A stretch of DNA of 64,000 nucleotides from Leptonemataceae bacterium (GCA_965227295.1 OZ245742.1:5664001-5728000); one strand, 5' to 3'. Shown: positions 34,761-62,709, counted from the stretch's first letter. Notes: generated from the sequence alone by a model not told the origin. A program made the numbers and translations.

Positions 34761-34777
34761 CTAAAAATTGGATTCTC

Positions 34778-42417: not shown

Positions 42418-44670
42418 TCATTCTGCGTCGACGCGCGGCACGACGAAGAAGACGCCTGCTTCTTTTCCGAACCGCAGGTACTCGACAATGTTCGTTCGCA
42501 GGTTGCCTTCGCGCTGGGCCTCTTTCAAATGATAGAGGGCGCCCATCTCCGATCCGTCCTCCGCCCCGGTCCGAATCTCTTCCGGTACATCTTCCCGCAG
42601 ACGCATGTACGCCGGATGGCCGAAGTCCGTGGTTACGAAAATCGGACGCACCCGCTCGCGCACGATGGACTCTTCGGTAAAGAGCGTATGCGGTCCTTCG
42701 CCCTGGTTCCAAAGGTTGACGGCCAGGCCGGGCTGGCAGCGGAACCGGCGCGGGGTCAGAGAATTGTCGGCGATGCTGCTGTAACGGATGCATCCGCTCT
42801 GGCGACGCTCGGCATCGATGATGCCCTGGAAGATCGAGTTCTCTGCTTCGAGATAACGCACGTGGGTTTCACCGAGAATGGTCGTCGCCTCGATGTCGGC
42901 GCGACTGCGCTCCGCATCTACGGCGCGTCCGCTGTGAGCGTGCACAATGCTGTCCACGAGCACCAGAGCGGCGGTGGACGTGCCGAACGCAAGTTGCGCG
43001 GCGATGCTGCGTTCAAAAACAACGGTCAGGTTCTCGTTGTATGTACCGGCCACGTTCGGTACGGCGTTCGCCTGCACGGAGAGCACGCCCTCCCCGGAAT
43101 TGGAACCGGTCAGCGTCGAATGCGCGAACCGCAAGCGCCCTAAGTTTCCCTGTACCACAGTTAACGCGCCTTCCACCAGCAGGCCGTCGCACAGCAAACG
43201 CCCCGGCGTGCGACTTTCCGCCGGCGCCGTTCCTTCCACTTCGATGGAACCGACAAGGTGCGGTCGCAGGCCGGCCGGCACCATGACTCCGGTCCGGCGC
43301 TCGCCGGCGATTACGTTGGGAATCTCGCCCGTCACGGGCCAGTCCGCCGCGGCAATCATGAGGCTGGAGCCGTCTTGCATAACGATGCGCGACGCGGCGG
43401 TGAGATCCTCCGCGTAGCTGGAGTTGTCCATGATCGTAATCAGCCCCACGGTACCGGCGGCCCCGGCGTTCCAGGCCGCAACGGCCTCGCCCAGGGTCGC
43501 ATAGATCGTTTCCGTCCCCACCGGCGTATGACTCTTCGAAACGCCGACGTGCCAGGTAACGCTGTCCAGGTCCAGGGCCTCGTCCACGGAGGCGCGACGG
43601 TTGTAGGGGCCGCCGCCGAGGTCGCCGCTGAATCCGTAAGAGTACGTTACGCGTACGTTAGAGGGAGTAGCCGATTCCGGAAAAGCGATGCGACCGAGCA
43701 CCGGGTCCACGGCGACACTGATCGGTTGATCCACGCTTTGTTCGACGCCGTCCTCGTAGTAGATGTATGTCTTCGTAGACGGCGGTTTTTCCCAGGCGCT
43801 CAGATCCGTAACCAGGATCTCCGCCGGAGGAATCACCGTACCGTTGTCGCTTACGACCAGGACCTCGTCGTCTTCGGCGAAGTACAGATACTCGCGGGTG
43901 ATGTCGCCGTCCGGATCGCGCAGGTTTTCGGTTTCGTCGTAGAGCGGGCGACGACGCAGGGGTGTTGGCAGATTCACCTCGCCGGCGAAACTGCTGATGC
44001 TCTCTTCGGTGCGCGGTCGGTTAAACAACGGCAGGTCCATGCCGAGAGGACTGAAGTTATAACAGCCGGGTTGGACTTCAAAGGCCTCGGCGCTACGCAC
44101 CTCGTAGGACGGCACCGGCCAGACGTAGATGCCGACGTTCGGAATGTTGTAGGCCCCGCCACCTTCCGGGCGACGTACATCCACGGTATGCGCCTGGGTA
44201 TCGAAGGCGGTGTACACGAGATCCATGGCATTCGCGTCCCGAATGTTCGCGGTGCCGCCTTTACCGATGCGCGGGTGATTGATGTTCTGGGTCGCACCGA
44301 GCAGCTCGAAAAACTCCACGACCTTCGAAGGCCAGCCGGTGGCGTCCCGGGCCAGTTGTTCGAGCACGGCCGCGGTACCTTTGCGGCGACGATACGCGAG
44401 CGTATTCGCCACGAAGGCGCGCTGACTGAAGATACCGGGAATCCCGGGATACAGACCGCGCAATCCCAACAGATCGCCCAGGTACGGGACGGCCCATTCC
44501 TCGCACGTCTCGACGAACCAGTTTTCGTAGAGGGTATCGAGATCGTCCTCGAAGATCTTCAGTTCTTCTTCCATGACCCCCAGGAGGGCGCGCAGGGGTT
44601 CTCCTTGCGCGGCGTCCCGGCGACGGTGCACGGCCGGTAATAGATTATAGAGTCTTTCGCTGGTTGCCAT
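42418..44670 (-). CDS. eCIS baseplate wedge / phage tail protein I-like protein
   Basis: LYNLLPAVHRRRD...LYENWFVETCEEWAVPYLGDLLG, RRRKGTAAVLEQLA, VDPVLGRIAF and GAEDGSEMGA motifs, typical of the gene after eCIS baseplate J proteins. Confidence 0.8.
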   Translation of the reverse strand: MATSERLYNLLPAVHRRRDAAQGEPLRALLGVMEEELKIFEDDLDTLYENWFVETCEEWAVPYLGDLLGLRGLYPGIPGIFSQRAFVANTLAYRRRKGTAAVLEQLARDATGWPSKVVEFFELLGATQNINHPRIGKGGTANIRDANAMDLVYTAFDTQAHTVDVRRPEGGGAYNIPNVGIYVWPVPSYEVRSAEAFEVQPGCYNFSPLGMDLPLFNRPRTEESISSFAGEVNLPTPLRRRPLYDETENLRDPDGDITREYLYFAEDDEVLVVSDNGTVIPPAEILVTDLSAWEKPPSTKTYIYYEDGVEQSVDQPISVAVDPVLGRIAFPESATPSNVRVTYSYGFSGDLGGGPYNRRASVDEALDLDSVTWHVGVSKSHTPVGTETIYATLGEAVAAWNAGAAGTVGLITIMDNSSYAEDLTAASRIVMQDGSSLMIAAADWPVTGEIPNVIAGERRTGVMVPAGLRPHLVGSIEVEGTAPAESRTPGRLLCDGLLVEGALTVVQGNLGRLRFAHSTLTGSNSGEGVLSVQANAVPNVAGTYNENLTVVFERSIAAQLAFGTSTAALVLVDSIVHAHSGRAVDAERSRADIEATTILGETHVRYLEAENSIFQGIIDAERRQSGCIRYSSIADNSLTPRRFRCQPGLAVNLWNQGEGPHTLFTEESIVRERVRPIFVTTDFGHPAYMRLREDVPEEIRTGAEDGSEMGALYHLKEAQREGNLRTNIVEYLRFGKEAGVFFVVPRVDAE

Positions 44671-44681
44671 GTCGGATGTCC

Positions 44682-47600
44682 TTAAATGAATTGCATGAGA
44701 ATGATTCCGGCCGTGTCCTCGTTCAGGAGGAGCATCTGTGCCGGCAGGAAGTCCCCGGTGCTGCCGTCCCGGCGCGCCAGTTCCGCCGCCAGGGTGGAGT
44801 CCACCGCCGCCCGGTATTCATAGACGTTCAGGCGGCCGCGTTCCTTCACCACGGCCAGGCCGTCCGCCGCGTCCGGTTCCCGGATCGTCCAGCGCAGACC
44901 GCGTTTTTCCTGGAAGATCAGCGCGTCCGTGGTGGGCACGTCGAAATCCGTGAGACCGAGTTCGGTGACCTTCGCCTGGATGTTGCTTTGCAGATCCGTC
45001 GTTACCGTGCTGGAACTCTCGAGGTAGTTCTGATTCGGTTCGATATCCAGGCCGAAGATGACGCTGGACGTAAGATACAGCTGATCGAGGTCCACGGCCT
45101 CGACGCCGTCCACGGATTCCAGGACCGTCACGATTTCCGCCGCGGAGACCTCCTGGCCGAAGCCGCGATTCCGAAACGCGAAGTGATTGCGCAAGGCCGT
45201 GTTGGCCGCGGCGAAGACTCGCTCCGGTATGTAACTTGCGTCGATTAGAAGTTTGGCCGCGATATTGAAGCGCAGCGGTTCGTAGGACGCCACGCGGACC
45301 GGCTGAAAGGGGTCGCGCACGGAATCGATACTGCGGATCAAATTCTGGTACAGCCCGGAATTCGTGGCCACGCTGCTGCCGCCGTCCCCGGCCACCGTAA
45401 TGTAGACGAGCTGGATCTCATCCTGCCACAGGCTTACGGCCCGGGCCTTACCGATGCCGCCGAAACCGCGGGCGAAGTTTTCGAAATCTTTCAACGAAAC
45501 AATGCGATCCAGGGTCAGCACCGAAAACGGGGCCCGCTCCCGCGCCTCGCCGAGGTCCTCCGGGGCCGAAGCTCCGGTGGCCGGCAACGGATTGTCCACT
45601 TCCGCAATGCCCACGGGCTGCGTTTGCATGAGTCGCAGGGTATTCGCGGAGACCTGACCGTCCGGACCGATGCCCTTGCGATAGGCAGCGGAAATGTTTT
45701 CGATTCCCGTGGGCAGACGTTCGCCGTTCTCGCCGTCACCGAAGATGATGCGAATGGTACCGTCATCGTCGTGGCGGACCGCGTACTTGCGATCCCGGGC
45801 GCCGAGATCGTACAGTGACGGGCTCTCTTCCCAGAGGACGTCATTGACGCGAACCTCCAGGCTGGTCTCCGTTCCCGTCGCCGTCGGCGCGGATACGTAG
45901 GTCAGCGGCGGTTCGCGCAGCGCGAAGACCTGATTCTTCAGCGACGCATCGCCGGAGCCGAGAACCTCGGAGATCGTTTCGCCGTGAGTCGCCGCGACGA
46001 CGTTCGCCTGGATCGTCACCGTAAGTCTATCGTAGCTGAAGTTAAGCGGAGCTTCGAATTGAAGCGTGCTGTACTTCTGGCTTTGCAGTACGTTCTTCAA
46101 AATTACGGCTTCGCTTACGATCTCGTCGTCCTCGTCCGCGGCCAAAGTGACGAAGGGCTCCGCGCCCGGGGCGACGGTGACCGTACCGATGAAACCCTTA
46201 TCCGTTTCCAGGGCCCAGACCGTTTCACCGGCCAGGGTCGTGACCGGGCTTTCGAGTACGGTGAGGATGTCACCGGGCACGAGGCTGATCGTCTGTGAAC
46301 CGTCGTCGGAAATCATGCGCGGCCGATCGATCTCCTGCAGATCTTCCACGACCTGCAGTCGACTGCGTTTGCCGCTGACGATCAGCACCCGACCGGTCTC
46401 AAGCTCCGTAACGATGCCGGCCAGATCGATCTGATCGCCGCCGACGACTTCCGCGCGCTGGATCGGTGCGGCGGCCAATGTCAACTCTTCACTCTGCAAG
46501 TATACGGTGGTGTCGCGCAGGCCGTAGTTGCCGAGGCCGGTCGGCGTATCCAGTTGCAGACGACTCAACCGTTCGCTCAGGAGAAAGTCCTGGCGATTCA
46601 TCGTTAAGTTCTGTTCAATGCGATATAAGCGACGGCCGGCGCTGTTTTCGAGCACCACCCATCCGCCGGCGAGGGCCTGGGTATAGGTGGTGTCCAGGTC
46701 CACGTACGAATCGAAGATCTTAAAGTCCGGCCATTCCTCGGGATAATCGTCCGGAAGCGGAATCGCGAAGCGCAGTTCCACCGGATAACCGGCCTGCTCG
46801 TTCAGAAGCGTGAGCTGGATCTCGTCGTTCGCCGCGGAAAGAACGCGCGCATCGTCCGCCGTATACACGGCCTCGTTCACCGCGAGATCGTGTCCCTCGA
46901 AGACCCGGGCTTCCGGCCAGATGCTGTCGTCCGCCGTCTTTAATTGCCATTCCTGCACCGAGCCGTTCTGCCCGCCGATCAAAATACGATCCGGCCAATC
47001 ACCGTTTGTCGCCGTGCCAATCGTACCGGCCGTGCCCGGAAAAGCGACACTGTTTGCCGGAGCATTCGCCACGATAAAACTGATCGTGGCGTCGTCCTGG
47101 AGCCGGCGGATGACCAGGTTCCGGGCGGCGTCCACGAACGCCAGGTAGGCGTTGTCCGCGGATACGGCGAGGTCGTAGATCACTCCGTAGTCGCCGTCGG
47201 TGAAAGTAGCACCGGCCGCGGCGCTGGAGCCGTTCCAGGTCCAGAAGCTCACGGTCTTGTTGCTGCCGGCCGCAACGATGATGGAACCGCCGCCGTCGGA
47301 GTACCACTTCACCGTGTTTACGGGACTTGTATCGACGACGATCGTGTGCACCAGCGCCCCGTTGCTGCGATTCCATACACGCACCTTTCCGTCCGTGTAG
47401 GCGCCGGCAATGTAGGCGTCGTCCGGAGAAAACGTGACGTCGTACACATAGACCGTAGATCGATCTTCGTCATCGAGGGGGATCGTCGCATCGAACATGC
47501 TTTGCAACGGAGCCGTACTCGTCCCCGTGTTCCAGCTCCACAGCGTTCCGTCAAGACCGCCGGCGGCCACGGTGGTGTTGTCGCCGGACACGGCGACCGC

Positions 47601-48632
47601 CATGATCGCCTGCGCCGTCGGCGCGGGATCGGGCGCGCCGAAGTACGGATCAAACTTCGTCGGTGAACCGCCGCTGAGATTCCATTTGTAGACCAGGCCG
47701 TCGCCGCCGCCGACGAAGAAAGCCGTCGTCGATAACAGGGCGACCGCGTTGCCGTTCAAGGAAGTCGGCCGGATATTATCGCGTTCCTCTTGCGTCAGAT
47801 CGTTCCAGTAGGGAGCGTTGAAGCCGAACAACAACGCGCTCTGCCGGAAGACGAAGACGCGCGGCTTCGCGGGCAGGCGGGCGTCGTCTAACATCGTACT
47901 CCAGGAAACTACGGTGGTGTCCTCTTCGTCGAGGACGGTGACCTTGCTTACGGTGCGCAGTTCGAAGACGTCGTAATCTTCCGGCGCGGCGGCGGCTTCG
48001 CGTTCGCTACCGACGATCAGCAATAGATCGCCCTGCTGGATCAAAACATCGAGGCCGGCGAGGTACAGCGAAGTCGTTGTACCGTCGATCGTTTGCGCCA
48101 CGTTGATCTGCGCGCCGAGAGAGTTGTACTCGTAACGAGCGATGAAGTCTTCCGACGTTTCGAAGGTTTGCGGGGATTGATCCTGGCCCGGAATGGAAAG
48201 GACCTGAGTGCCGCGCGGTACGAGAACCGTATCGGGGGCGTCTTCGCCTTCTTCGACGGAGAACGCAAGATACGTCGACGCGGCGACACCGGGCTTGAGT
48301 TCGTAACCGATGGACCGGGCCAGTTCCAGTACGGAGCGCCGTTCGCCGGCGGTACGCACGTAACCTTCGTTGGCGATTCGTTCCTGATAAAAGGTCAGCA
48401 CGTCCAGCGCCGACGACCAGGCATCCAGAAAGGCCACCGTCGGATCGTCCGCGGCGCGCGTGGTGAGCGCCTGCAACGGCCGCTCACCGGAAGGCGTCTC
48501 GTGCGACGCCAGCCGTGCCAGCATGCGCGCATAAAACGCCGAGTGCGTACCGATGCGATACTTAATCTTAGAAAGTCCGGGGCGATTGAAGCGTTCCGGT
48601 ACTTCCAGTTCGTCCGTTTGATCGGGCGTCAT
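44682..48632 (-). CDS. eCIS baseplate J-like assembly protein with an inserted WD40-like propeller
   Basis: DVLTFYQERIANEGY, ANVVAATHGET, FGDGENGERLPTG and RIVSLKDFENFA motifs; 7 WD40-like repeats at about 46800-47760. Confidence 0.88.
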   Translation of the reverse strand: MTPDQTDELEVPERFNRPGLSKIKYRIGTHSAFYARMLARLASHETPSGERPLQALTTRAADDPTVAFLDAWSSALDVLTFYQERIANEGYVRTAGERRSVLELARSIGYELKPGVAASTYLAFSVEEGEDAPDTVLVPRGTQVLSIPGQDQSPQTFETSEDFIARYEYNSLGAQINVAQTIDGTTTSLYLAGLDVLIQQGDLLLIVGSEREAAAAPEDYDVFELRTVSKVTVLDEEDTTVVSWSTMLDDARLPAKPRVFVFRQSALLFGFNAPYWNDLTQEERDNIRPTSLNGNAVALLSTTAFFVGGGDGLVYKWNLSGGSPTKFDPYFGAPDPAPTAQAIMAVAVSGDNTTVAAGGLDGTLWSWNTGTSTAPLQSMFDATIPLDDEDRSTVYVYDVTFSPDDAYIAGAYTDGKVRVWNRSNGALVHTIVVDTSPVNTVKWYSDGGGSIIVAAGSNKTVSFWTWNGSSAAAGATFTDGDYGVIYDLAVSADNAYLAFVDAARNLVIRRLQDDATISFIVANAPANSVAFPGTAGTIGTATNGDWPDRILIGGQNGSVQEWQLKTADDSIWPEARVFEGHDLAVNEAVYTADDARVLSAANDEIQLTLLNEQAGYPVELRFAIPLPDDYPEEWPDFKIFDSYVDLDTTYTQALAGGWVVLENSAGRRLYRIEQNLTMNRQDFLLSERLSRLQLDTPTGLGNYGLRDTTVYLQSEELTLAAAPIQRAEVVGGDQIDLAGIVTELETGRVLIVSGKRSRLQVVEDLQEIDRPRMISDDGSQTISLVPGDILTVLESPVTTLAGETVWALETDKGFIGTVTVAPGAEPFVTLAADEDDEIVSEAVILKNVLQSQKYSTLQFEAPLNFSYDRLTVTIQANVVAATHGETISEVLGSGDASLKNQVFALREPPLTYVSAPTATGTETSLEVRVNDVLWEESPSLYDLGARDRKYAVRHDDDGTIRIIFGDGENGERLPTGIENISAAYRKGIGPDGQVSANTLRLMQTQPVGIAEVDNPLPATGASAPEDLGEARERAPFSVLTLDRIVSLKDFENFARGFGGIGKARAVSLWQDEIQLVYITVAGDGGSSVATNSGLYQNLIRSIDSVRDPFQPVRVASYEPLRFNIAAKLLIDASYIPERVFAAANTALRNHFAFRNRGFGQEVSAAEIVTVLESVDGVEAVDLDQLYLTSSVIFGLDIEPNQNYLESSSTVTTDLQSNIQAKVTELGLTDFDVPTTDALIFQEKRGLRWTIREPDAADGLAVVKERGRLNVYEYRAAVDSTLAAELARRDGSTGDFLPAQMLLLNEDTAGIILMQFI

Positions 48633-51118
48633 AATCCACCTTCCATGAGAAATTCGATTTTACCGTTTTCCGGAGCGTTCTGATCGTTATCGACTCGTAC
48701 GATTTCCAGACGCTCCATTTCGATCAGTCCTTCGGTGACCGTTTCCGTAACTTCACCCGGGGCAACATCAACGCCGAAGCGTACGAAACGCACCGTATCC
48801 ACGCGCTCCACGCCGGTGGTTTCCATCGCCGCGGCGATGATGTTCGACAGGTATACCGGCTCGCCGAAGGTATAGTTATCGGGGTGAAAGAAACCGCGGC
48901 TGCCGTCGGGAAGATCTTCACTGGAGAAGAGTTCGAGCAACGATTCTTTCACGGTACTCTTGAGATAACCGTCCTGGACCTGCACGCGCAGGATGATGTC
49001 CAGGCCGACGAAGTTCGGAGCCTCGATCTCCAGGTCGTGCCCGGTGAGTCGATACGGATCGATGAACGCGCGCAGTTCTTCTTTGAATGCATCGTCCACG
49101 TCCAGTCCGCCCTCGCGGTCGATGGACAGAAAGACCGTATGCCAGGAACCGGTCCAGCGCAGGGTCGCCTGGGCCTTCTGTACTTCCGGATGGCGTTCGG
49201 CAATGCGCACGTAATCTTCTTCCGTAACTGCTCTTTCCTGGCTCTTAAAGAAAGTCGGAGCGTACAACTTCACCTGGTCGATGGACTCCGGCTCGTAACC
49301 GCCGGAAGCCGGCAGCGGATTAAAGACGGCGCTCAGTCCGATCAGTTCGGTATCCGGATCGTCCACCACCACGTGGGCGAGGCTGCGCGCGCCGATGTTG
49401 CCGCTCCGCCCGTTGCCGATGCGATAACGCGCCTGAAAACGCGTTCCCGCCGGCGGGCGTTTGCCGAGAACGTTATCACCGAAACGCAGGACCGCCCGGC
49501 CGTCATCCTCGGTTTCCACGACGAAATCGGTGGAGAAACGATCGCTGTTTAAAAGATCGGGCCGGGCCGTCCATTCTTCGTCATCGTCATAGAGCCGGAC
49601 CGCCGGCTCGGCCAGACGCGTGTCCTGAACTGTTGCCTGGCCCGCCGCACGACGCAGCGCCGTTTCGTTGGAGTACGGCTGGCGCTGCGTAATGCGCGGC
49701 AAACGTAACTCAGGGCGATAGCGCGGTGTGTCTTCCGGAACCTCGGCGGGGATTAAGTCTTCATCGGGGATCGTCCGCCCGTGATCTGCAAGGACGACGT
49801 TCGCATAGGCCACGGTAATCGGCGCGAGCGTCGCGGACTCGGTTTCCACATCGCCGAGAAAGAGATCGAAGGGCAGTGCATCGCCCTTGTACCATTCGAT
49901 TTCGATGTAATCTTCGCCGTAGAGATCGTCGGTGCCGGGAGTGCCGTCGCGCTCCAGGCGTACGGCGTGGCGGCGATTCGGATTCGCGTCGAACGTGCGG
50001 CCGCTTTCGGGACTGCGCTTCTCTTCGAAGATGAGCACGTCGCCGGCCTTTAAGTTTATTTCCGTGGCACTTACGTTCGCTTTCAACACGGCGCTGGTGG
50101 CCCCGGCGGGCAGTACCGCCCGGGTTTCCCCCCAGGTATAAAACTCCAGTTCGTTGCGCGCCTCTTTGATTTCGATGGCAAACATCGTCTCAAACACGCG
50201 CGCCCCGCGACTTACCGCCGTACCGATCTGCGCCGACGCGATGCGCGCATCCCCCTCACCTTCGATCTTCGTGAGCAACTGCGTGCGCACGGGTAACACC
50301 GCGCCCTCGGCGTTCTGGCCGCCGACGCTCGTATCCACCTGCAGGGCGACCCAGGTTCGGGCGTTGCAGCCGTCGTGCATGGGATAGTCCAGAACCCGCG
50401 CGTGTCGCCGCACCGAAACCCGGCGACGCGCCGTGCCGAGATAGGCCTCGGTGGATACCGCATCCTGATAATAACTCATGTAATCGGCGGTGTACGCGAG
50501 GAGCTCGACGACGGCCACACCGGTGTCGGCGGCGTTACGCTCCGTCCATTCCGGAACGAGAGACGTCATGCGGTCTAACATCAACCGACGAAAACTTTGA
50601 TAGTCCTTCACCAGGTAATCGATGGCCGGCTCCTGCGGGCGCGCGGCGATCGCCACCTCGTCTTCTTCGCAGTCGAATTCGTTCGGGCATTCCACCTTGA
50701 ACGAAAACGCGACGCTGCTCAGAATGCGATCGATGCCCTCCGGCGGTTCGTCGCTGCGGCGATCGCGCACCAGGCGCAACGTATACTCGGAAAAATCGCC
50801 GGCCTTGTCCAGCTCCACCTCCACGTAACCGCGCACGTCCGCCCCGTCCACCGGGTCGGTGGTCGAGGTATCGATGACGACGTCCACGACCTCGATGTCC
50901 CGGATCCGCTGGCCGCCTTCGATGCGAACATTATCCTTCGTGAGTTCAATGGCGACGTCGAGGGATTTCAAGAAGTGCAGACGCAACTTCTTCTGGCGCA
51001 GGGAGTCCTGGACGCCCACCAACTCCAGGTCCAGGACTTCCAGGTAGTCGATGCCGTTGATCGTTGCGCTCTCAACGACCTTGCGCCGCCGTGATTCGTT
51101 ATCCGTGATGTATTGCAT
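48629..51118 (-). CDS. eCIS baseplate J-like assembly protein
   Basis: NGIDYLEV, IDYLVKDYQSFRRLMLDR, YYQDAVSTEAYLGTAR, RFGDNVLG and RAVTEEDY motifs. Confidence 0.9.
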   Translation of the reverse strand: MQYITDNESRRRKVVESATINGIDYLEVLDLELVGVQDSLRQKKLRLHFLKSLDVAIELTKDNVRIEGGQRIRDIEVVDVVIDTSTTDPVDGADVRGYVEVELDKAGDFSEYTLRLVRDRRSDEPPEGIDRILSSVAFSFKVECPNEFDCEEDEVAIAARPQEPAIDYLVKDYQSFRRLMLDRMTSLVPEWTERNAADTGVAVVELLAYTADYMSYYQDAVSTEAYLGTARRRVSVRRHARVLDYPMHDGCNARTWVALQVDTSVGGQNAEGAVLPVRTQLLTKIEGEGDARIASAQIGTAVSRGARVFETMFAIEIKEARNELEFYTWGETRAVLPAGATSAVLKANVSATEINLKAGDVLIFEEKRSPESGRTFDANPNRRHAVRLERDGTPGTDDLYGEDYIEIEWYKGDALPFDLFLGDVETESATLAPITVAYANVVLADHGRTIPDEDLIPAEVPEDTPRYRPELRLPRITQRQPYSNETALRRAAGQATVQDTRLAEPAVRLYDDDEEWTARPDLLNSDRFSTDFVVETEDDGRAVLRFGDNVLGKRPPAGTRFQARYRIGNGRSGNIGARSLAHVVVDDPDTELIGLSAVFNPLPASGGYEPESIDQVKLYAPTFFKSQERAVTEEDYVRIAERHPEVQKAQATLRWTGSWHTVFLSIDREGGLDVDDAFKEELRAFIDPYRLTGHDLEIEAPNFVGLDIILRVQVQDGYLKSTVKESLLELFSSEDLPDGSRGFFHPDNYTFGEPVYLSNIIAAAMETTGVERVDTVRFVRFGVDVAPGEVTETVTEGLIEMERLEIVRVDNDQNAPENGKIEFLMEGGL

Positions 51119-51158
51119 GATTCTGCTCGTTCGTTATTTTCTTAAGTGTGCTCAACCG

Positions 51159-51515: not shown

Positions 51516-51536
51516 ATCGTCCTCTGTATTGCTCGT

Positions 51537-53784: not shown

Positions 53785-53826
53785 TTCAGCGACCGGACGG
53801 GGTCGCTAATATCACTTCATATATAC

Positions 53827-54767: not shown

Positions 54768-54772
54768 AATGT

Positions 54773-55513: not shown

Positions 55514-55788
55514 TATTTCATCCTCCCATTGCCGAAATTGCCGTAGACCGCCCGCGCCGATTGTCGGCCCAGGCCCGACGCCCCGCCCGGGGCGCTACCC
55601 CGCACCGTACCGGCGTCGATGAAGTCGCTGTTGCGTAAGTGAAATGATTGATTCAGACCGCGCGCGGCGACGAGTCGTTCGAGTTCCGCACGAAAGGCCG
55701 CCGCAAAGGCGCGACCGTCGCGCCGCGAAAAATTCGGCCCGGCCTCGATCACGAGTTCCTCGATGTTCAATTCAATCGTCTTTGCCAC
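55513..55788 (-). CDS. small conserved eCIS hypothetical protein
   Basis: IELNIEELVIE...AELERL...LGRQSARAVY pattern typical of the gene after eCIS ATPases. Confidence 0.75.
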   Translation of the reverse strand: MAKTIELNIEELVIEAGPNFSRRDGRAFAAAFRAELERLVAARGLNQSFHLRNSDFIDAGTVRGSAPGGASGLGRQSARAVYGNFGNGRMK

Positions 55789-55792
55789 GGTC

Positions 55793-57799
55793 TTACTTAC
55801 CCCAATCCCTGAATTCAGTGCCGCTGATGGTTTTTTCGAGTTTCATGTACTCGCCCTTCGCGGCCTGTAAAAGATGATTCATGTTCACCGGCGCATCGTC
55901 TTCGGCGGCGAGAAAGGCCGCCGACATGGCGATGTTCTTAATATTCCCTCCCGCAACATTCAGCTGCGCCAGGCGTTTATAGTTCAATTCGCCGAGGGGC
56001 ATCGCCGCGGGGAACGCCTTGCGCCAGATCTCCTCGCGCTGCCCCGCGTCCGGAAACGGAAACTGCACCACGAAACGGATGCGTCGCAGAAAGGCCGTAT
56101 CCAGGGAATTCTTCAGGTTCGTCGTTAAAACGGCCAGGCCGCGATAGCTTTCCATGCGTTGCAGTAGATAGCTGACTTCGATGTTCGCATGGCGGTCGTG
56201 ACTGTCCTTGACCTCACTGCGTTTTCCAAACAGAGCGTCCGCTTCATCAAAGAGTAGGATTGCTCCGCCGCTTTCCGCGGCGTCGAAGACCTTGCGCAGG
56301 TTCTTCTCCGTCTCGCCGATGTATTTGCTGACAACCTGACTCAGATCAATGCGAAAGAGATCCAGATCCAGTTCCCGGGCCAGCACTTCACCGGCCATGG
56401 TCTTACCGGTCCCGCTCGGCCCGGCGAATAGAGCACTGATGCCGAGGCCGCGATTGCTGCGATTGCCGAAGCCCCATTCCTCGTAGACCCGGGCGCGATG
56501 TTTCACCTGCACGGCCACATCCCGCAACATCTGCATTTGCAGCGGCGGGAGCACCAGATCGTCCCAGCCCGAGCGCACGTCGATGGGCTGCGCAAGATCT
56601 TCCAGGGCCGGCCGGGCCAGGGCGCGACAGGAACGCCAGAGGGCGCGGCCGATGTCATTGTCTTCGGGAGCGTTGCGCATCTCCCGCACCGTGGCCGCCC
56701 CGGCTTCGCGAATGCGTTCCACACCCAGGTTAAACTGAGACGTAATCAAACTGAGCACCTGATCGGCGCCACCGTTCATCGCCTGCCATTCCGGATACGC
56801 GCTCAGTTCCCGGCGCCAGATCTCGCGCTGCTCCATCGCGCTCGGCTTGCTAACTTCGATTCGTTGCATATTACCGGCCGGAATCAACGCCGGCACGGAT
56901 AGAATGCGCGGCACGCTCAAATCTTCGAAGAAGGCCAGAACGCTTGCGGCCGGATTGCGTTCCTCGGGAACTTCCACGAAGAGCACGAAACCTCCGAGCA
57001 CAACCTCGCGTTCCCACAAACGTGCCAGGGCCTCGCGCTCATCCGCCGCGGCGGGGACGGCCGTGGCCTGCATTTCCATGAGCCGCAGACCGGCGCGCGC
57101 CGCCGCGAAAGCCGCAAGGCTACGCTTATCCGCTTCGGCGCTTCCGTAGAGCTGGACGGCAGGCAAACCGGCGAGCCCGCCGACCGGAGCGCCCCACAGC
57201 TCGTTCATGAGCCCGGCGCTACGAAGACGTTCCCCGGATAACATCTCCGGTGCGGGGACGGGACGGATCATGCCGGCCAGCAGTTCGTCGCGGCTGGCAA
57301 GACCGAGTAAGTAATGCAGGACACGCTCCGGAATGCGCAGGCGGCGATGAATGAGTACGTCACCCGGTTCGCATTCAATCAAACGCCAGCGACGCAGCGG
57401 GGCATCGGGCAGGAGCGCGCTCCAGTGAGCTTCGGCAAGGGCGTCGAGGGCGACAGCGAAGGTCAGGCGCGCATGTCCCTGGGGATGGAAAGCGGCACAC
57501 AGCTCCGCGATCCTGGCATCCAGCTCAATGCCGGCGCACAGCAAAAGCAGATCGCGCTCGAAATTCGAAAGCTGAAATTCCTGGGTTATTTTTTCCAGGG
57601 CCGGCAGCATCCCGGAATCACTGTTCGATGCAGGCGTCCTCCCCGGAAGAGGAGCCGCATCGAAGGCCAGGTTCGGCACGTCCTGTTCACGCAGGGCGTC
57701 CAGGCGCCGCGAAAGCCTTTCGCGCACTTCCTCCAGGCGACCGCGCAGGTACAGCCGGTTCTCCTGCTCCCAGTTCGTATGTGTAAGACTGTTCTGCAT
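55793..57799 (-). CDS. eCIS AAA+ ATPase (Afp15/Pvc15-like)
   Basis: Walker A GPSGTGKT, VVSKYIGETEKNL, Walker B LLFDEADALFGKR, DRHANIEVSYLLQRME; FQLSNFERDLLLL N-terminal domain. Confidence 0.95.
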   Translation of the reverse strand: MQNSLTHTNWEQENRLYLRGRLEEVRERLSRRLDALREQDVPNLAFDAAPLPGRTPASNSDSGMLPALEKITQEFQLSNFERDLLLLCAGIELDARIAELCAAFHPQGHARLTFAVALDALAEAHWSALLPDAPLRRWRLIECEPGDVLIHRRLRIPERVLHYLLGLASRDELLAGMIRPVPAPEMLSGERLRSAGLMNELWGAPVGGLAGLPAVQLYGSAEADKRSLAAFAAARAGLRLMEMQATAVPAAADEREALARLWEREVVLGGFVLFVEVPEERNPAASVLAFFEDLSVPRILSVPALIPAGNMQRIEVSKPSAMEQREIWRRELSAYPEWQAMNGGADQVLSLITSQFNLGVERIREAGAATVREMRNAPEDNDIGRALWRSCRALARPALEDLAQPIDVRSGWDDLVLPPLQMQMLRDVAVQVKHRARVYEEWGFGNRSNRGLGISALFAGPSGTGKTMAGEVLARELDLDLFRIDLSQVVSKYIGETEKNLRKVFDAAESGGAILLFDEADALFGKRSEVKDSHDRHANIEVSYLLQRMESYRGLAVLTTNLKNSLDTAFLRRIRFVVQFPFPDAGQREEIWRKAFPAAMPLGELNYKRLAQLNVAGGNIKNIAMSAAFLAAEDDAPVNMNHLLQAAKGEYMKLEKTISGTEFRDWGK

Positions 57800-57829
57800 T
57801 ATCTTCTAACTTAGCTCTGCTAACTTCTA

Positions 57830-59089
57830 TTACGGAGCATCCAGGTCCACGGTCGGCCCGTTGAAGTCTCCACCGCCGTCCTGGCTCAGCAAACTCTGTA
57901 CGCCGTCGACTTCCACGCGCATGAGGTACTCTCCGCGCAGGACGTTCGTGATGGAGAAGCCCACCGTGCTGCTCGCCGTCGTCACCGGATCGGAGGGAAT
58001 CACGTACGATTCACCGTCCGTACTGCCGGTGCCCGTTAAGAGCAGGCTCACGGCCTGGCCGGCTTCGACATCCGGGGAAAGCGTGAGCGTCAGTGTGGCC
58101 GTAACGAGATCGTCACCGTCGACACTGAGGCCGGAGGTACTCTGTCCGCTAATCGCCGGGCGCAACAAAATCGGACACGGATTCGAAGTCGCCCGGACCC
58201 GCGTGACGGCGCCGTCCAGGTACTTGTGCACGATCCGCACGGCCCGCTGGCCGGCGGAGAGCCCCGAGGGCAACGTGAACTCCACACGTCCGGCCGCGGA
58301 GGCCGAAGGCGTCGTCTCCACGCTATCCACACGCACGTGAACCGTATCGCCCGCGACGGAGGGTGTTAACTTTGTACCAATGACACTTAAGTCGTCGCCG
58401 GCCAGGATGGCCGTATTCTGGCCCCCCGGAGGATGGACCTTCTCCACCAGCGGCCCGGAGAACTGCTCCAGGGCAATGCGACGCTCGTAGACCGGCAGCG
58501 GGGGCTTCGGCACCGCCGAATCCGGCTCCAGGAAGACCGCCGAGGCCCGGTAGGCGATGGACAGGGCGTGGGGCACCTGAAAGAACACCGACCAGATCTT
58601 CGACATCTCCTCTAAGTTTAGAGTGATCGGAGTTAAGCGGATCGATTCCGGCTGTTGGGCCAGGTCCGAATTCCCCAGGTAATGCGTGGGATCGTTCGTC
58701 AGGATCTTTTGAATCACCGCTTCAATGAACTCCGCGCTCAAGAGCGGTTGCGCGTGCAACAACGTGACCACGCCGCCCATCAAACGCTGGTGTTCCAGCA
58801 ACGAATGATCGCCGTAGAACGAAAGAATGAAGTCCAGGTCCAGGACGGCCTGCGGTTTGTTGCGCAGATCGCCGTTGCCGGCCCGCGTCGGAAGATCGTT
58901 GTTGCGGAACGCCGGATTCGGAATACTCTGATACAGATACAGATTCACCCGGGCTGCCGGGGGATCCGTATCCGCGTCTTTGGGACGCAGCGACGAAACC
59001 GTGACACCGGGCACCACCGAACTCACACTGTCGGCGATGGCCTCTTTCAGGATTTCCGTAACCGCGGCGATGGAAAGATAATTGCTCAC
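57830..59089 (-). CDS. DUF4255 / Pvc16-like cap protein with C-terminal Ig/IPT-like domains
   Basis: MSNYLSIAAVT, VNLYLYQ...NPAFRNNDLP, LEEMSKIWS...SIAYRAS motifs; beta-rich C-terminal half ending GEYLMRVEVDGVQS. Confidence 0.88.
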   Translation of the reverse strand: MSNYLSIAAVTEILKEAIADSVSSVVPGVTVSSLRPKDADTDPPAARVNLYLYQSIPNPAFRNNDLPTRAGNGDLRNKPQAVLDLDFILSFYGDHSLLEHQRLMGGVVTLLHAQPLLSAEFIEAVIQKILTNDPTHYLGNSDLAQQPESIRLTPITLNLEEMSKIWSVFFQVPHALSIAYRASAVFLEPDSAVPKPPLPVYERRIALEQFSGPLVEKVHPPGGQNTAILAGDDLSVIGTKLTPSVAGDTVHVRVDSVETTPSASAAGRVEFTLPSGLSAGQRAVRIVHKYLDGAVTRVRATSNPCPILLRPAISGQSTSGLSVDGDDLVTATLTLTLSPDVEAGQAVSLLLTGTGSTDGESYVIPSDPVTTASSTVGFSITNVLRGEYLMRVEVDGVQSLLSQDGGGDFNGPTVDLDAP

Positions 59090-60153
59090 AGGGCCTCTCC
59101 GTTAACTCGCTTAAGATATTCTTCGAGTGACATTGGACGATGACTCGACTGTTCCGCGGCCGGCGCCGGAGCGGAATGAGCCGTCTCGGAAACCGAACGC
59201 ACTTCAATACGGCCGATGTGAATGCGCACCGCCGGCTCGTTCGACGGCGACTGATCCAGCCCGCGCACCGCGGGCGGCGCAGCGTTCGGTCGATGCAGCA
59301 GCGGCGGCGCTTCAAAGAACGCGCTCTTACCGGGACGTACGGGCGGCAACAACGGAGCGTCGTTGATCCCGGACGGGGTCCGGCCGGAAACGCCGACAGG
59401 CGAATCATCAAAAAATGTCTGCTTATGAAAGTTTTCCACTTCTCCGACTTCGGTGGAACGCGGAGCTTCGTAACGGGGTTCGACTCCCGACATCTCATCG
59501 CCCCGGGTGTTAACCGGCGGCATGAGATCACCGGCGAAAGAATCGACGATCGACGCCGATGAATCCCGGGTCTCCAGCGGAACTGCGCCCGCGCGCATCG
59601 AAGACTGCGGCCCGAGATCGGAAAAATCACGGCGCTGCGTCGGTCCGGCAGGGGAAGCCGGCAACACTCCGCTCTCGTTCGCGGCCGGAGTACCCGGAGC
59701 GGACGGAGTGCCCGGAGCGGTCGGAGCATTCGCAGCCAGGCCGGACAATGCAGCCGGCGCCGCGGACGGTGCCGCGCGACGTTGCACAGGCAGGTCCGCG
59801 TTGCCGTCACTCCGCGGCATGAGGTCACCGACTGGTGACTCTTTCCGCTCATTTTCTTCGGAAGCGGTTGCGGGTTCACCGCTCGCCCGTCGCAGAGTAC
59901 TGGCGTCGGCCTGGATCTTGCGTTGCACGGACGGCGCGGCTTCCTCGGTTTCTTCCGGTTCGGCCTCCGGGGAACGTGCGAGGCGCTGCGCTCCGTTTCC
60001 GACAATCGGTGCACCGCCCTCTTCGATGGAAGCATCCCCTCCCTCTTCCCGGGCGTAGCGCGAGACGAAAAGCGGTCGGGCCTTCGGCAGACTGCCGAGA
60101 TTTCGCTGAACCATTCGTTTAATAAAATTACTCATGATCGTACTTACGCTCAT
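59086..60153 (-). CDS. eCIS hypothetical protein, largely disordered (Pro/Ala/Ser/Glu-rich)
   Basis: Overlaps both neighbouring genes by 4 nt; C-terminal VRIHIGRIEVR...SLEEYLKR motif. Confidence 0.8.
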   Translation of the reverse strand: MSVSTIMSNFIKRMVQRNLGSLPKARPLFVSRYAREEGGDASIEEGGAPIVGNGAQRLARSPEAEPEETEEAAPSVQRKIQADASTLRRASGEPATASEENERKESPVGDLMPRSDGNADLPVQRRAAPSAAPAALSGLAANAPTAPGTPSAPGTPAANESGVLPASPAGPTQRRDFSDLGPQSSMRAGAVPLETRDSSASIVDSFAGDLMPPVNTRGDEMSGVEPRYEAPRSTEVGEVENFHKQTFFDDSPVGVSGRTPSGINDAPLLPPVRPGKSAFFEAPPLLHRPNAAPPAVRGLDQSPSNEPAVRIHIGRIEVRSVSETAHSAPAPAAEQSSHRPMSLEEYLKRVNGEAL

Positions 60154-60908
60154 GCGCCCAACATCGCCATGTAGGATCGCCTGCGCCGGACGCTCATGCG
60201 CAGGATCTCCGCTTCGCTCCAGCCGTAGTACCGCGCCAGGCTGTGAACTTCGTAGAGAAGCTCTTTGGCCCGGGACGACAGTTCGGCCCAGAGAAAGTCG
60301 GCCACGTCCAGAAGTTGCTGAAACTCCCGCTCGCAGACCGGACACTGAAGATTCAAAAGAATCTCCGCCTGGGGATCGGCCTCGGCCATGGCCGCCGCCG
60401 CCAATCCCTGTTCGAAATCCGTAAGCTCATCCACACTAACTTCTTGCGAATGTGAATCAGCTTCCGTCTTCGAACGTTTCGCTTTGGTTACGCATCGGCG
60501 TAACAGCGTGCGGTACGCTTCGTTCTCGGTTCCCGTGCTCAGGGCCGCCGCCAGATCGAATGAATCCGGCAGGCGAAACTCCACGCTCAGGTTTCCCCAT
60601 TCACGCCGCAGGACCTCGTCGTTTTCACGCGTCTCTACGTTGGCCCGAACGTCCCCGGTCTCCAGTTGGAGCTCCATCGGCTCCTGGCAGCCGGGGCATT
60701 CGGCGTAAACATTTAGTTCGCGTCCGAACAAACGTTCGCGAACATCCAGGAGCAACTCGTCCCGCCGGCCGATACTCAACGCCGCGAATTCGCGGCGCGG
60801 AGTATCCGGTGCGTTCAGGCTGAGCAGAGCCAGTGCCCGATCCACGGGATGCCGACTCTGCCCGTCTTCCCAGATCCGCAGTACGGCGGCGGCGGAAAGA
60901 GAGCTCAT
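60150..60908 (-). CDS. tail/baseplate assembly chaperone-like protein
   Basis: WEDGQ, LSIGRRD, CPGC, FRLP...DL, DPQAE...CPVC and EVHSLARYYGWSEAEIL...RRRSY motifs. Confidence 0.82.
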   Translation of the reverse strand: MSSLSAAAVLRIWEDGQSRHPVDRALALLSLNAPDTPRREFAALSIGRRDELLLDVRERLFGRELNVYAECPGCQEPMELQLETGDVRANVETRENDEVLRREWGNLSVEFRLPDSFDLAAALSTGTENEAYRTLLRRCVTKAKRSKTEADSHSQEVSVDELTDFEQGLAAAAMAEADPQAEILLNLQCPVCEREFQQLLDVADFLWAELSSRAKELLYEVHSLARYYGWSEAEILRMSVRRRRSYMAMLGA

Positions 60909-60926
60909 ACGATCGCCTGGGCGAAA

Positions 60927-61451
60927 TTACGCCGGTGCCAGGAAGGAAGGCTCAGCGGGTTCTACGACTTCTACGTCGCGCTCCCAGCCTTCGTTCTCGA
61001 GCTTGATGCTCTGGATCGCGATGGCGTTGCCGTTCGCGTCCAGTTCCGGCAGAGCCTGGAAATCCGAAACCCAGCAACGGTAGATCTTGTACGAGATCGC
61101 GAGCTGACCGGCTTCGTTGTAAACTTCCAGGATGATGTCCTTACGGAAATCCTGAAGGGACGTCTCGGCACCGAGACCGGCGCCGTAGTTCCAGACTTTG
61201 TTCGCCCACTGCTCGAAGTCTTTATCGTGAGTGACGCCGCGTTCGAGCATGATCGCTTCGAAATCGGACTTACCCGGAGACTTGCGCGTAGAGCTGGGAT
61301 CGCCGCCTTCGCGGTGTTTTACGACTTCCGTCGTCCGCTTGAGGGCGCCGACCTTGGAAACACCGGCGACGTAGCGGCCGTCCCATTTGACCCGGAACTT
61401 GAAGTTCTTGTAAGGGTCGAATCGGTTTGCATTAACACTGAATTGTGCCAT
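60927..61451 (-). CDS. tail tube protein (T4 gp19-like)
   Basis: RFDPYKNFKFRV, HREGGD, LERGVT and ELDANGNAIAIQSIKLENEGWERD motifs; GGAGG SD. Confidence 0.95.
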   Translation of the reverse strand: MAQFSVNANRFDPYKNFKFRVKWDGRYVAGVSKVGALKRTTEVVKHREGGDPSSTRKSPGKSDFEAIMLERGVTHDKDFEQWANKVWNYGAGLGAETSLQDFRKDIILEVYNEAGQLAISYKIYRCWVSDFQALPELDANGNAIAIQSIKLENEGWERDVEVVEPAEPSFLAPA

Positions 61452-61488
61452 CTAAGTTATCCTCCAATAAACCTTACGAAGCCGGCGA

Positions 61489-62709
61489 TTAAGCCTGCCC
61501 CGCGATCTGCTGCAGCTGGATGATCACGAATTCCGCCGGCTTGAGCGGCGCGAAACCTACGATCACGTTGACGATACCCTTATCGATATCGCTCTGCGGA
61601 TTCACCTCGGCGTCGCACTTCACGAAGTACGCTTCCCGCGGGGAAGTTCCCTGGAACGCTCCCTGACGGAAGAGATCCTGCATGAACGAACCGACATTCA
61701 GGCGCAGTTCGGCCCACAGCGGTGCGTCGTTCGGTTCGAAGACGGCCCACTGCGTTCCGCGGAAAAGGCTCTCCTCGATGTAGAGGGCCAGACGGCGAAC
61801 GGGCAGATACTTCCACTCGCTCGCGGCCGCATCGGTACCGGCCAGAGTCCGCGCGCCCCATACGATACGACCGGCCGGCGGCTTGGAACGCAGGCAGTTA
61901 ACCGCCAGCGGATTCAAGTTACCGTTCTCGGCATCCGTCAGAGGAACGCTGAGCGCGGGCACGCCGTTGAGTCCGGCTTCAATACCGGCGGGCGCTTTCC
62001 ATACGCCCCGGTTCGCATCGGTGGTGGCGATGACGCCGGCGACGGCACCGGAAGGCGCGTAAGTCTTGATCTGGTTGCTGTCGAGGGGATCGGGTTGACG
62101 CAGCCGCGGGAAATACAACGCCGCGTTCTTCTTCTGAGTCGCGCCGATCGTGATGTCCGTGCCGACGTTGGAAACGGCGGTTGCGCTGTCGGTCCAGGTG
62201 GACGGCGGATCAACGAGCAGCATCGCACGACGTTCCTCGCAGTAGGTGGCTGCCGTAGCATATACGGAAGCATCTACTTCGTTGAAGGTGTACGAGCCGT
62301 CACCGTTGTCGGTGGAATCCGGCAGGATGCAGAGTAAGTTAAAGAGATCCGCATCTTCCAATGCATAGATCCCGGTTTTGCTCGCCTGCGAACCGTTGTA
62401 TTCGGTTGCTCCGGCTTCGGAACCGGAAAGCTGTCCGGACTCCGCCACACTGACGATGATTGCGGTAGAACCGCCGTTTACGTAGTAGTCACGAACCGCG
62501 TAGCTCAGAGGGCTCGAGGCATCGAGACCGCCGAAGATTCGTTCATACTCGCCGAAGCTGTTCACCTGTACGGGCGTATTGGTCAGCTCTGCATCGCTGA
62601 CCGGCGTCGTGCCGACGAACGCGGTAATCGACGTGGCCACACCGACTAAGGTGCGCACGCCGCTGGGAATTTCCTGAATATAAACTCCAGGATAGGAAGT
62701 TGTAACCAT
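61489..62709 (-). CDS. contractile tail sheath protein
   Basis: YPGVYIQEIPSG, RGVWKAPAG, WGARTL, WKYLPVRRL, FEPND and GFAPLKPAEFV motifs; start ATG 62709 after a GGAGAG SD. Confidence 0.96.
   Translation of the reverse strand: MVTTSYPGVYIQEIPSGVRTLVGVATSITAFVGTTPVSDAELTNTPVQVNSFGEYERIFGGLDASSPLSYAVRDYYVNGGSTAIIVSVAESGQLSGSEAGATEYNGSQASKTGIYALEDADLFNLLCILPDSTDNGDGSYTFNEVDASVYATAATYCEERRAMLLVDPPSTWTDSATAVSNVGTDITIGATQKKNAALYFPRLRQPDPLDSNQIKTYAPSGAVAGVIATTDANRGVWKAPAGIEAGLNGVPALSVPLTDAENGNLNPLAVNCLRSKPPAGRIVWGARTLAGTDAAASEWKYLPVRRLALYIEESLFRGTQWAVFEPNDAPLWAELRLNVGSFMQDLFRQGAFQGTSPREAYFVKCDAEVNPQSDIDKGIVNVIVGFAPLKPAEFVIIQLQQIAGQA

Follow-up and report, generated by a model that had tools for sequence, protein, structure and literature searches.

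The stretch of DNA considered here, 64,000 nucleotides of the Leptonemataceae bacterium assembly GCA_965227295.1 (OZ245742.1:5664001-5728000) and hereafter called the window, carries a gene cluster for a contractile injection system (CIS). The cluster occupies positions 42418-62709 on the minus strand, where the listing of open reading frames (ORFs) and the Pfam matches delineate a single continuous run of 17 intact ORFs, reading from 62709 to 42418 with intergenic gaps of -4 to +42 bp. Twelve of the 17 proteins match a Pfam family at E<=0.01, ten of these exceeding the curated cut-off, and NCBIfam and PHROG models were also scanned against the proteins of the locus. The features are given below in the order in which they are read; L001 denotes the most similar related cluster, found in a metagenome-assembled genome (MAG), and aa stands for amino acids.

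62710-62960, minus strand: AT-richer leader with a ribosome-binding site and a candidate -10 box (sequence, comparison with L001)
61489-62709, minus strand: sheath (Cis2/Afp2-like), 406 aa (Pfam PF04984 and PF17482; PHROG tail sheath, E 1e-55)
60927-61451, minus strand: inner tube protein (Cis1/Afp1-like), 174 aa (Pfam Phage_T4_gp19, E 1e-43)
60150-60908, minus strand: homologue of the T4 gp26/gp51-like baseplate-hub assembly protein, 252 aa (Pfam T4_baseplate, E 6.5e-13; PHROG 'baseplate hub')
59086-60153, minus strand: Ala/Pro/Ser/Glu-rich protein, 355 aa (translation, composition, conserved termini)
57830-59089, minus strand: tail terminator or cap (Afp16/Pvc16-like, DUF4255), 419 aa (Pfam Pvc16_N, E 1.7e-37, residues 9-197)
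55793-57799, minus strand: AAA+ ATPase (Afp15/Pvc15-like), 668 aa (Pfam AAA, E 5e-27, and winged-helix WHD, E 7.5e-19)
55513-55788, minus strand: conserved small protein, 91 aa, first gene of a variable 'cargo slot' (positional homologues)
54773-55513, minus strand: DUF4157 (eCIS core domain) protein, 246 aa (Pfam eCIS_core, E 1.8e-31, residues 169-245)
54132-54767, minus strand: tube-family baseplate protein (tube initiator, Afp7/Cis7-like tube part), 211 aa (Pfam CIS_tube, E 5e-8)
53827-54135, minus strand: LysM-like small baseplate protein, 102 aa (alignment motif; weak match to PHROG 'baseplate wedge subunit', E 5e-4)
52582-53784, minus strand: gp27-like hub (N-terminal half of Afp8/VgrG), 400 aa (profile match to VgrG 9rce_F)
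51860-52585, minus strand: gp5-like spike, 241 aa, with an OB domain and a repetitive beta-helix-like tail (Pfam Phage_base_V, E 6e-20)
51537-51860, minus strand: PAAR-like spike tip candidate (Afp10 position), 107 aa (position, size, conserved Cys/His)
51159-51515, minus strand: gp25-like baseplate wedge protein (Afp9), 118 aa (Pfam GPW_gp25, E 1.5e-18)
48629-51118, minus strand: Baseplate J/gp6-like protein, first copy (Afp11/Cis11a), 829 aa (TIGR02243, PHROG, PDB)
44682-48632, minus strand: second Afp11/Cis11 copy, 1316 aa (Pfam WD40 and Baseplate_J; TIGR02243, 225 bits)
42418-44670, minus strand: last baseplate protein, 750 aa, with a weakly P2 gpI/Afp12-like N-terminus
42313-42336, minus strand: intrinsic terminator closing the operon (10-bp stem with 6 G-C pairs, then TTTTTTT)

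The Walker A, Walker B and HExxH motifs encoded in the cluster are all intact and its gene lengths are near those of the orthologues in L001, its nearest relative, so that the cluster looks intact. Judged from its sequence, the locus is an intact, chromosomal, single-operon CIS cluster. The composition of its genes is host-like, with a GC content of 0.597 vs 0.615 for the other genes of the window, a GC content at third codon positions (GC3) of 0.72 vs 0.78, and a codon-frequency r of 0.93. The terminator hairpin (42336-42313) lies about 80 bp past the last stop codon. At the other end, the leader of the sheath gene holds a candidate -10 box, TATAAT, at 62833-62828, which was not called by a consensus promoter scan of the leader; the box (TCTTATAAT/TCTTATGAT) and the ribosome-binding site are conserved between the window and L001. 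The sheath start at 62709 gives a canonical N-terminus, follows the ribosome-binding site GGAGAGAGAG and aligns with L001, and on these grounds the ATG at this position was favoured and a TTG start at 62961 rejected.

Afp11 (TIGR02243, two genes) and the tube (gp19/TIGR02241) lie contiguously within 20 kb, accompanied by the sheath, the DUF4255 cap, the AAA+ ATPase, gp25, a VgrG-type spike and the DUF4157 core domain; together these make up the gene set of extracellular CIS (eCIS) loci as Chen 2019 and Geller 2021 use the term. An earlier reading of the window from its sequence alone (the original prediction) had described an intact eCIS-type set in an unbroken run with a terminator, and all the parts that it listed are present, although it overlooked three genes (60150-60908, 59086-60153 and 55513-55788). 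It also stated that capsid, lysis and type VI secretion system (T6SS) membrane genes are absent, and the scans of the window ORFs agree. Pfam and NCBIfam models detected no capsid, terminase, portal, border integrase, holin or endolysin gene either downstream of the cluster (42 kb) or upstream of it (1.3 kb), and neither a TssB/TssC sheath pair, nor the TssJLM membrane complex, nor ClpV among the window ORFs. Because these last components were not found and the sheath is a single phage-type protein, the locus falls outside the T6SS class. None of the 17 cluster proteins has a transmembrane segment of anchor type, and neither tRNA nor Rfam families were detected within the window.

The cluster very probably represents a CIS of dbeCIS lineage II, subtype IIc, an assignment that draws on gene order and on resemblance to two labelled loci rather than on placement in the dbeCIS tree. 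According to the dbeCIS survey, subtypes IIa and IIc have two copies of afp11, afp8 is split into gp27-like and gp5-like genes in IIa, IIb and IIc, and IIc has afp10 (PAAR), lacks afp6 and in most loci lacks afp12 and afp13 (Chen 2019). The window contains two Afp11 paralogues and separate genes for the hub (400 aa) and the OB spike (241 aa). The Cys/His-rich 107-aa gene, which gave no match to the PAAR model, occupies the afp10 position, and Pfam found no TetR-type gene, the afp6 criterion, in the cluster. A tblastn search of plasmids with the 829-aa protein returned 46 records. These include two loci labelled IIc, Novosphingobium resinovorum pSA1 (41% over 88% of the query) and Mycobacterium sp. 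JS623 pMYCSM01 (35.5% over 100%), and one labelled IIa, Rhodococcus sp. WB1 pWB1 (27% over 33%) (Chen 2019). The JS623 locus has its genes in the order of the window: DUF4255, ATPase, a 75-aa gene, DUF4157 genes, genes of 218, 121 and 374 aa, baseplate V, a 111-aa gene, gp25, Baseplate J and two large genes. The original prediction had likened the cluster to Afp/PVC/MAC, which are of lineage I, and had called it a minimal variant; similarity and gene order instead place it in lineage II, and the comparison with dbeCIS subtypes, run against labelled plasmid loci, matched IIc. One sheath gene, a split hub and spike and two Afp11 copies are standard for this subtype, and 17 genes are present. Given membership in IIc, the split hub/spike and the single sheath gene are therefore normal and do not constitute a new minimal design.

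Species-representative genomes were scanned with the hub protein as the single query, which finds close relatives only, and nine loci (L001-L009) were recovered. The best match, L001, is on the 6.44-Mb contig CBDEUV010000002.1, labelled 'MAG: Leptospirales bacterium', with 46% hub identity; one further Leptospirales genome with the cluster is a lower bound for such a single-protein scan. The other eight loci come from Acidobacteriota (three, including Thermoanaerobaculia and Sulfotelmatobacter), SAR324, Neomarinimicrobiota, Gemmatimonadaceae, Limnocylindrales and a genome labelled 'bacterium'. Gene order is kept in all nine as far as each extends, and all 17 genes of the window are syntenic in L001. 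In a maximum-likelihood tree of six concatenated proteins (2718 columns, 12 loci) the window and L001 are sisters (100/100), joined next by the SAR324 locus (100/100), and the two share 65% identity across 2678 columns. This pair is set apart from most other loci by a short sheath, a WD40 insert and a bare DUF4157 protein. No flank genes are common to the window and the related loci.

One of the genes missed at first encodes the 252-aa protein. It contains a CxxC...CxxC pattern, with Cys71, Cys74, Cys189 and Cys192 invariant across 105 sequences, and belongs to a very large family, in which 6095 representatives match at E<=1e-3 and 1478 still at E<=1e-30. It has no sequence relatives in the PDB, and its AlphaFold model, which has a predicted local distance difference test (pLDDT) score of 95.9, gave 0 matches to PDB structures at E<=1e-3. 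Against the predicted viral structures of BFVD the same model gave 46 matches at that threshold, the top ones being annotated 'baseplate hub assembly protein, bacteriophage T4-like', gp26 hub subunits and 'hub assembly catalyst', in agreement with the Pfam T4_baseplate and PHROG 'baseplate hub' matches. An uncharacterised protein of Leptospira phage LE4 also appears among the BFVD matches, at rank 24. The subtype-specific genes of lineage II were described as domain-less (Chen 2019); one such 'subtype-specific gene of unknown function' can now be read as a T4 gp26/gp51-type hub-assembly homologue.

The solved structures nearest to the sheath are those of the Streptomyces CIS (8bky/8bl4, E 2e-72). 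By alignment, a surface insertion of about 130-160 aa is carried by the sheaths of three other loci and missing only in the window and L001; the L004 sheath ORF, with its odd N-terminus, was not placed in either length class. Some short forms, of 385-407 aa, occur among the top metagenomic sheath matches. The tube gene passes NCBIfam TIGR02241 (141 bits vs a cut-off of 62), and its product is 87% identical to that of L001. The cap, with a C-terminal extension, is 61% identical to the L001 cap. Between them, the 355-aa protein begins at an ATG overlapping the stop codon of the preceding gene (ATGA), matches no family in Pfam, PHROG or NCBIfam, varies in length among relatives and is conserved only at its N- and C-terminal ends (L001, L004, L008); from its position we infer a tape-measure candidate. 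A 437-aa ORF at 58722-60035 was rejected as a gene, since it is rich in Arg and its frame does not fit GC3; the real gene is the Ala/Pro-rich frame that overlaps it.

Baseplate, hub and spike follow the plan of the labelled loci. The tube initiator shows 44-68% identity in all loci covering that position and has no sequence match in the PDB. Its small neighbour of 102 aa carries a C-terminal GDRLD..IA...LG....W..I...N motif conserved in nine sequences, to which the Pfam LysM model gave no match; the alignment pattern and the weak PHROG match suggest that this LysM-like protein corresponds to the LysM part of Afp7 as a separate gene. Similarly, the 400-aa protein matches no Pfam or other family model, and a profile built from ten sequences (the window and nine relatives) matches residues 60-343 of the solved VgrG 9rce_F (E 1.4e-7), so the protein is taken as the gp27-like half of a split spike protein. 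The C-terminal sequence of the spike itself is repetitive, and the 107-aa tip candidate has five residues, C13, H15, C47, C59 and C87, invariant in eight sequences. The 829-aa protein passes TIGR02243 ('putative baseplate assembly protein'; 276 bits vs a cut-off of 155.8) and matches PHROG baseplate wedge (E 1e-35) and PDB 9gtp_1K (E 9e-17), with Pfam Baseplate_J below its cut-off. The 1316-aa protein, a paralogue of the first (E 6e-21), also passes TIGR02243 and has a WD40 beta-propeller inserted at about residues 270-615. Of eight related loci examined, three share this insert (L001, L004, L005) and five are without it (L003, L007, L008, L009, L010). In a supplementary table WD40 is listed as a 'shell' domain of eCIS operons, with 31 occurrences and an odds ratio of 15.5 (Geller 2021). 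Homologues of the 750-aa protein end the cluster in 11 of 11 related loci and are conserved over their whole length across the subtype. Pfam Tail_P2_I matches the window protein at E 1e-3, below the cut-off, and two of eight family members match this model; the protein has no sequence relatives in the PDB.

The ATPase has its Walker A motif, GPSGTGKT, at residue 460 and its Walker B motif, ILLFDE, at residue 514. Between it and the tube initiator lies a slot that in relatives ranges from empty (L007, L008) to 7.7 kb. The DUF4157 proteins encoded there measure 359-2417 aa, and their C-terminal parts are uncharacterised; L005 additionally has an endonuclease/exonuclease/phosphatase-family (Exo_endo_phos) protein and a muramidase with a peptidoglycan-binding domain in the slot. 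The slot may be read as one for payloads, almost bare in the window; its positions in related loci are as follows.

Slot in related loci: L002, 3740-8914; L005, 1469-8232; L006, 7442-9013; L009, 6151-8978; L010 (Mycobacterium sp. JS623), 4097-10632; L011 (pSA1), 1663-10274

As candidate passengers the locus offers only the 246-aa DUF4157 protein, a metallopeptidase-motif protein with HELTH (HExxH) at residue 235 that ends with its domain and has no toxin extension, and the 91-aa protein. The 91-aa gene has homologues at the equivalent position in L001 and L004, and the 75-aa gene stands there in the JS623 locus. It matches no family in Pfam, PHROG or NCBIfam, and an Atlas look-up returned only unnamed clusters of 88-92 aa (0.89), a weak lead.

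Among named systems, the closest in organization are the predicted dbeCIS IIc loci A0409 (Mycobacterium sp. JS623 pMYCSM01) and A0087 (N. resinovorum pSA1) (Chen 2019). Like the window, they have the same order from the cap to the last baseplate gene (identities 28-52%), two Afp11 genes, hub and spike as separate ORFs, a tube initiator and a LysM-like protein each with its own gene, a small gene behind the ATPase and DUF4157 in the equivalent slot. They differ in their long DUF4157 proteins (359-2417 aa vs 246 aa without extension in the window) and in being plasmid-borne, in Actinomycetota and Pseudomonadota. The second Afp11 of JS623 has no WD40 insert, and a kelch-repeat gene stands behind the cluster instead; the loci examined for the insert include JS623 (L010) and not pSA1 (L011). 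Behind the JS623 baseplate genes, within L010 21878-30280, come the kelch-repeat protein (1394 aa), which is another beta-propeller associated with IIc, as well as a glycosyltransferase and a phospholipase D-like protein. The cluster of L001 resembles that of the window in its short sheath, its WD40 insert, its DUF4157 protein without extension and its GC content. It belongs to a different organism, however, its individual proteins being 43-87% identical, its cap 113 aa longer and its Ala/Pro-rich protein 80 aa longer. It is unannotated, and literature searches found no description of it.

The closest solved chains are from the Streptomyces coelicolor CIS-Sc, of subtype IId (PDB 8BKY/8BL4 and 9GTP; sheath E 2e-72, Baseplate J E 9e-17). 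CIS-Sc is likewise without Afp13, a typical Afp14 and ClpV, whereas IId has one Afp11 and a fused VgrG; the CIS-Sc sheath is 534 aa with an extra domain. CIS-Sc is shown to be cytoplasmic and to mediate cell death, and it needs a membrane protein. The T6SS-like CIS of Halogeometricum borinquense (IIa; PDB 9EZM; sheath E 1.9e-61) resembles the window in lineage and in having two cis11 genes, and differs in its Cis11, which matches 25% over 34%, and in structural genes divided between two subclusters. It is bound to the cytoplasmic membrane, which correlates with a protein of six transmembrane (TM) segments, which has no counterpart in the window cluster. Afp, PVC and MAC, of lineage I, share with the window the tube, sheath, cap, ATPase, gp25, Afp11, spike and PAAR-type tip, and match the C-terminal part of its sheath at E 1e-36 to 1e-44. 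They differ in having three paralogous sheath genes, an Afp8 that is fused and an Afp11 that occurs once, and they also encode tail fibres (Afp13), a tape measure (Afp14) and, downstream, toxins (Chen 2019); their extracellular action is proven.

The genes of the window support as host an uncultured Leptospirales-lineage spirochaete outside the genus Leptospira, in line with the Leptospira relative that had been predicted. The gene at 10334-11395 (minus strand) passes the NCBIfam equivalog for the LIC_10091 family lipoprotein (414 bits vs a cut-off of 350), a family of 146 members at E<=1e-10. Among the 120 matches listed, 26 are organism-named, of which 25 are spirochaetes (Leptospira, Leptospiraceae, Leptospirales, 'Spirochaetia/Spirochaetales bacterium') and one is a 'bacterium'. 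The window protein is 65% identical to that of a Leptospirales MAG vs 41-50% to those of Leptospira species. Acetate kinase agrees: in its best 24 matches after itself, all four organism-named ones are spirochaete MAGs (52-55% identity), and matches to Firmicutes reach 48% or less. Short metagenomic contigs encode a sheath (P0003), an acetate kinase (P0124) and a lipoprotein (P0244) that are 95, 86 and 87% identical to those of the window. Given metagenomic proteins this similar, a close relative of the host exists in other data, probably with the cluster.

It is likely that the locus encodes a functional particle. The gp27-like hub, the gp5-like spike and the Cys/His-rich tip would form the puncturing centre, their roles being assigned by homology, and gp25, the two Afp11/Cis11 paralogues and the 750-aa protein would form the wedges and cage of a six-fold baseplate. 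The tube-family protein and its LysM-like partner would start the tube; tube and single short sheath would polymerise, possibly along the Ala/Pro-rich tape-measure candidate, and the DUF4255 protein would cap the far end. The T4 gp26/gp51-like protein and the AAA+ ATPase would assist assembly and loading. The particle would be released when some producer cells lyse and would dock on its target through modules at the baseplate periphery, the WD40 propeller of the second Cis11 and the 750-aa protein, these two being the leading candidates for such contact, whether with a target or with a membrane. The sheath would be held extended at high energy, and its contraction would push tube and spike through a membrane.

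Overall, the best explanation is an intact IIc CIS in a Leptospirales-lineage host, perhaps a free released particle, and this reading is favoured with moderate confidence. Its extracellular component, in which free particles escape on lysis of some producer cells, is proposed only tentatively, and the label 'extracellular' is for this locus an assumption. The lack of a TM anchor in the 17 proteins and of a shared membrane partner in the flanks suggests a free particle, and the large DUF4157 proteins, the nuclease/phosphatase-family protein and the muramidase in the slot of relatives would fit a payload slot by analogy. Several points weigh against this interpretation. The promoter is putative, consisting of a conserved -10-like box, the window covers 1.3 kb upstream of the sheath, and the subtype was assigned indirectly, as described above. 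The DUF4157 protein is without the C-terminal extension of its relatives, and neither a recognisable toxin nor a lysis cassette (Pfam, NCBIfam) nor an Afp13-type tail fibre gene was found in or beside the cluster. The roles proposed for the WD40 propeller and the 750-aa protein are putative. The structural model of the latter is poor (pLDDT 54.3; predicted template modelling score, pTM, 0.39), with 0 fold matches in the PDB at E<=1e-3 and weak parallel beta-helix/tailspike-like matches that were not used as evidence. Finally, the only lineage-II systems studied are not extracellular, that of Streptomyces (IId) being cytoplasmic and the haloarchaeal one (IIa) membrane-bound. The same IIc machine could thus act from inside its producer, either in the cytoplasm, firing on the cell's own membrane under stress as in Streptomyces-type cell death, or docked at the inner membrane and firing outwards on contact in a T6SS-like manner, as in haloarchaea. 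Both modes taken together are a rather doubtful alternative. They draw support from those two precedents, from the cytoplasmic Streptomyces sheath being the closest solved one, from the lack of Afp13, a typical Afp14 and lysis genes, as reported for Streptomyces, and from the bare DUF4157 protein. Yet each of the inside-acting systems studied either requires a membrane partner or is correlated with one, while this cluster encodes no membrane protein and shares no flank gene with related loci; a diderm spirochaete envelope with its periplasm would be a thick barrier to outward firing, and the large DUF4157 fusions and muramidase of relatives suit delivery into other cells. A more specific version, that the window and L001 represent a vertically kept spirochaete IIc lineage, marked by the short sheath, the WD40-bearing Cis11 cage and a DUF4157 protein free of toxin, that does not inject toxins into others and acts on or at the producer's own envelope, for example through stress-triggered lysis or contact-dependent firing across the periplasm, is unlikely.

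Two further explanations concern the identity of the cluster and of its host. That it is a remnant or domesticated myovirus tail, either a defective prophage or an R-type tailocin, is the most improbable of all. The sheath, tube, gp25, Baseplate_J and T4-like hub-assembly protein all belong to phage-tail families, and the sequence ends 1.3 kb upstream of the sheath, but the AAA+ ATPase, DUF4255 cap and DUF4157 core are absent from phage tails and pyocins, the 42 kb downstream hold none of the phage genes sought, and the 17-gene cassette recurs without phage genes in at least six labelled phyla and three loosely labelled MAGs. It is also very unlikely that the host call is wrong, the contig being chimeric or the organism no relative of Leptospirales and the cluster coming from another phylum. 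A GC content of about 60% is far above that of cultured Leptospira as generally known, and apart from one unnamed metagenomic match at 86% the acetate kinase is 52-57% identical to other proteins (52-55% for the organism-named ones). Moreover, the cassette occurs in many phyla, and the informative host genes lie 9-31 kb from the cluster. On the other side, the LIC_10091 lipoprotein and acetate kinase of the window map to one contig of 5,938,550 bp, GC is even throughout the window and matched by the codon use of the cluster, the restricted LIC_10091 family is almost wholly spirochaetal among its named listed members, and the closest cluster, L001, sits in a Leptospirales-labelled MAG of similar GC (0.592).

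Among the neighbouring genes, PADLOC gave no match on 14 flank ORFs. Just past the terminator, on the same strand as the cluster, 41684-42181 encodes a 165-aa tetratricopeptide repeat protein with 102-bp periodic DNA repeats; it bears a below-cut-off resemblance to SycD/LcrH-type chaperones and was not found in related loci. Convergent with the cluster lies a low-GC gene (40120-41427, plus strand; GC3 0.53 vs about 0.78 for its neighbours) for a 435-aa protein with an N-terminal hydrophobic leader, for which only weak leads, the LIC10707 family and SGNH/GDSL hydrolases (Atlas 0.82), were obtained and not used as evidence. An IS5-family transposase (245 bits, cut-off 140) stands beside a Uma2-family putative restriction endonuclease at 33610-35329 (minus strand), 7 kb from the cluster. 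At 16499-17794 (plus strand) is a gene for a LruC-domain protein (DUF4842), a family known from Leptospira. Opposite the LIC_10091 lipoprotein gene, which is the real one and lies on the minus strand, a long plus-strand ORF extends over 10358-12808; its VCA0040-like domains begin only past residue 395, so that translation of this ORF probably starts near position 11500. A protein with two hemerythrin domains is encoded at 4876-5997 (plus strand). Five small ORFs at 3093-4894 (minus strand; 84-145 aa, GC3 0.47-0.56), with no PADLOC match for any of the five and no Pfam match for the four scanned, may form a foreign islet.

CIS have been catalogued in 14 bacterial phyla (Geller 2021). The operon table of that survey (1,425 operons, with phylum-to-order columns) contains no Spirochaet*, Leptospir*, Turneriella or Leptonema entry, and its genome list shows that hundreds of spirochaete genomes were screened. 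In the main text of Chen 2019 there is no spirochaete system, and the searchable part of its supplements names spirochaetes only in the genome list; a 2025 metagenome survey has none in its text or three supplementary files. Literature searches for eCIS or phage tail-like particles in Leptospira or spirochaetes found nothing relevant. The statement of the original prediction that no characterised eCIS is known from the host group agrees with the searchable parts of the three surveys; the public Leptospirales MAG (L001) already carries an orthologous cluster. No experimental study of subtype IIc was found in the literature on contractile injection systems. According to the Streptomyces study, all well-characterised systems came from two related clades, and according to the haloarchaeal study clade IIa had no earlier characterised member. 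The locus is a member of a catalogued subtype in a new host group and is otherwise ordinary. Should the unlikely own-envelope reading be true, it would represent the first CIS known in spirochaetes and a third, distinct inside-acting mode in lineage II. Subtype IIc is widespread, the hub-assembly gene alone having the 6095 representative homologues noted above, and the cluster, being compact, intact and free of toxin fusions, would offer a clean template for the expression of a IIc particle. Together with its L001 orthologue it adds a phylum-level host group to the catalogue of contractile injection systems.

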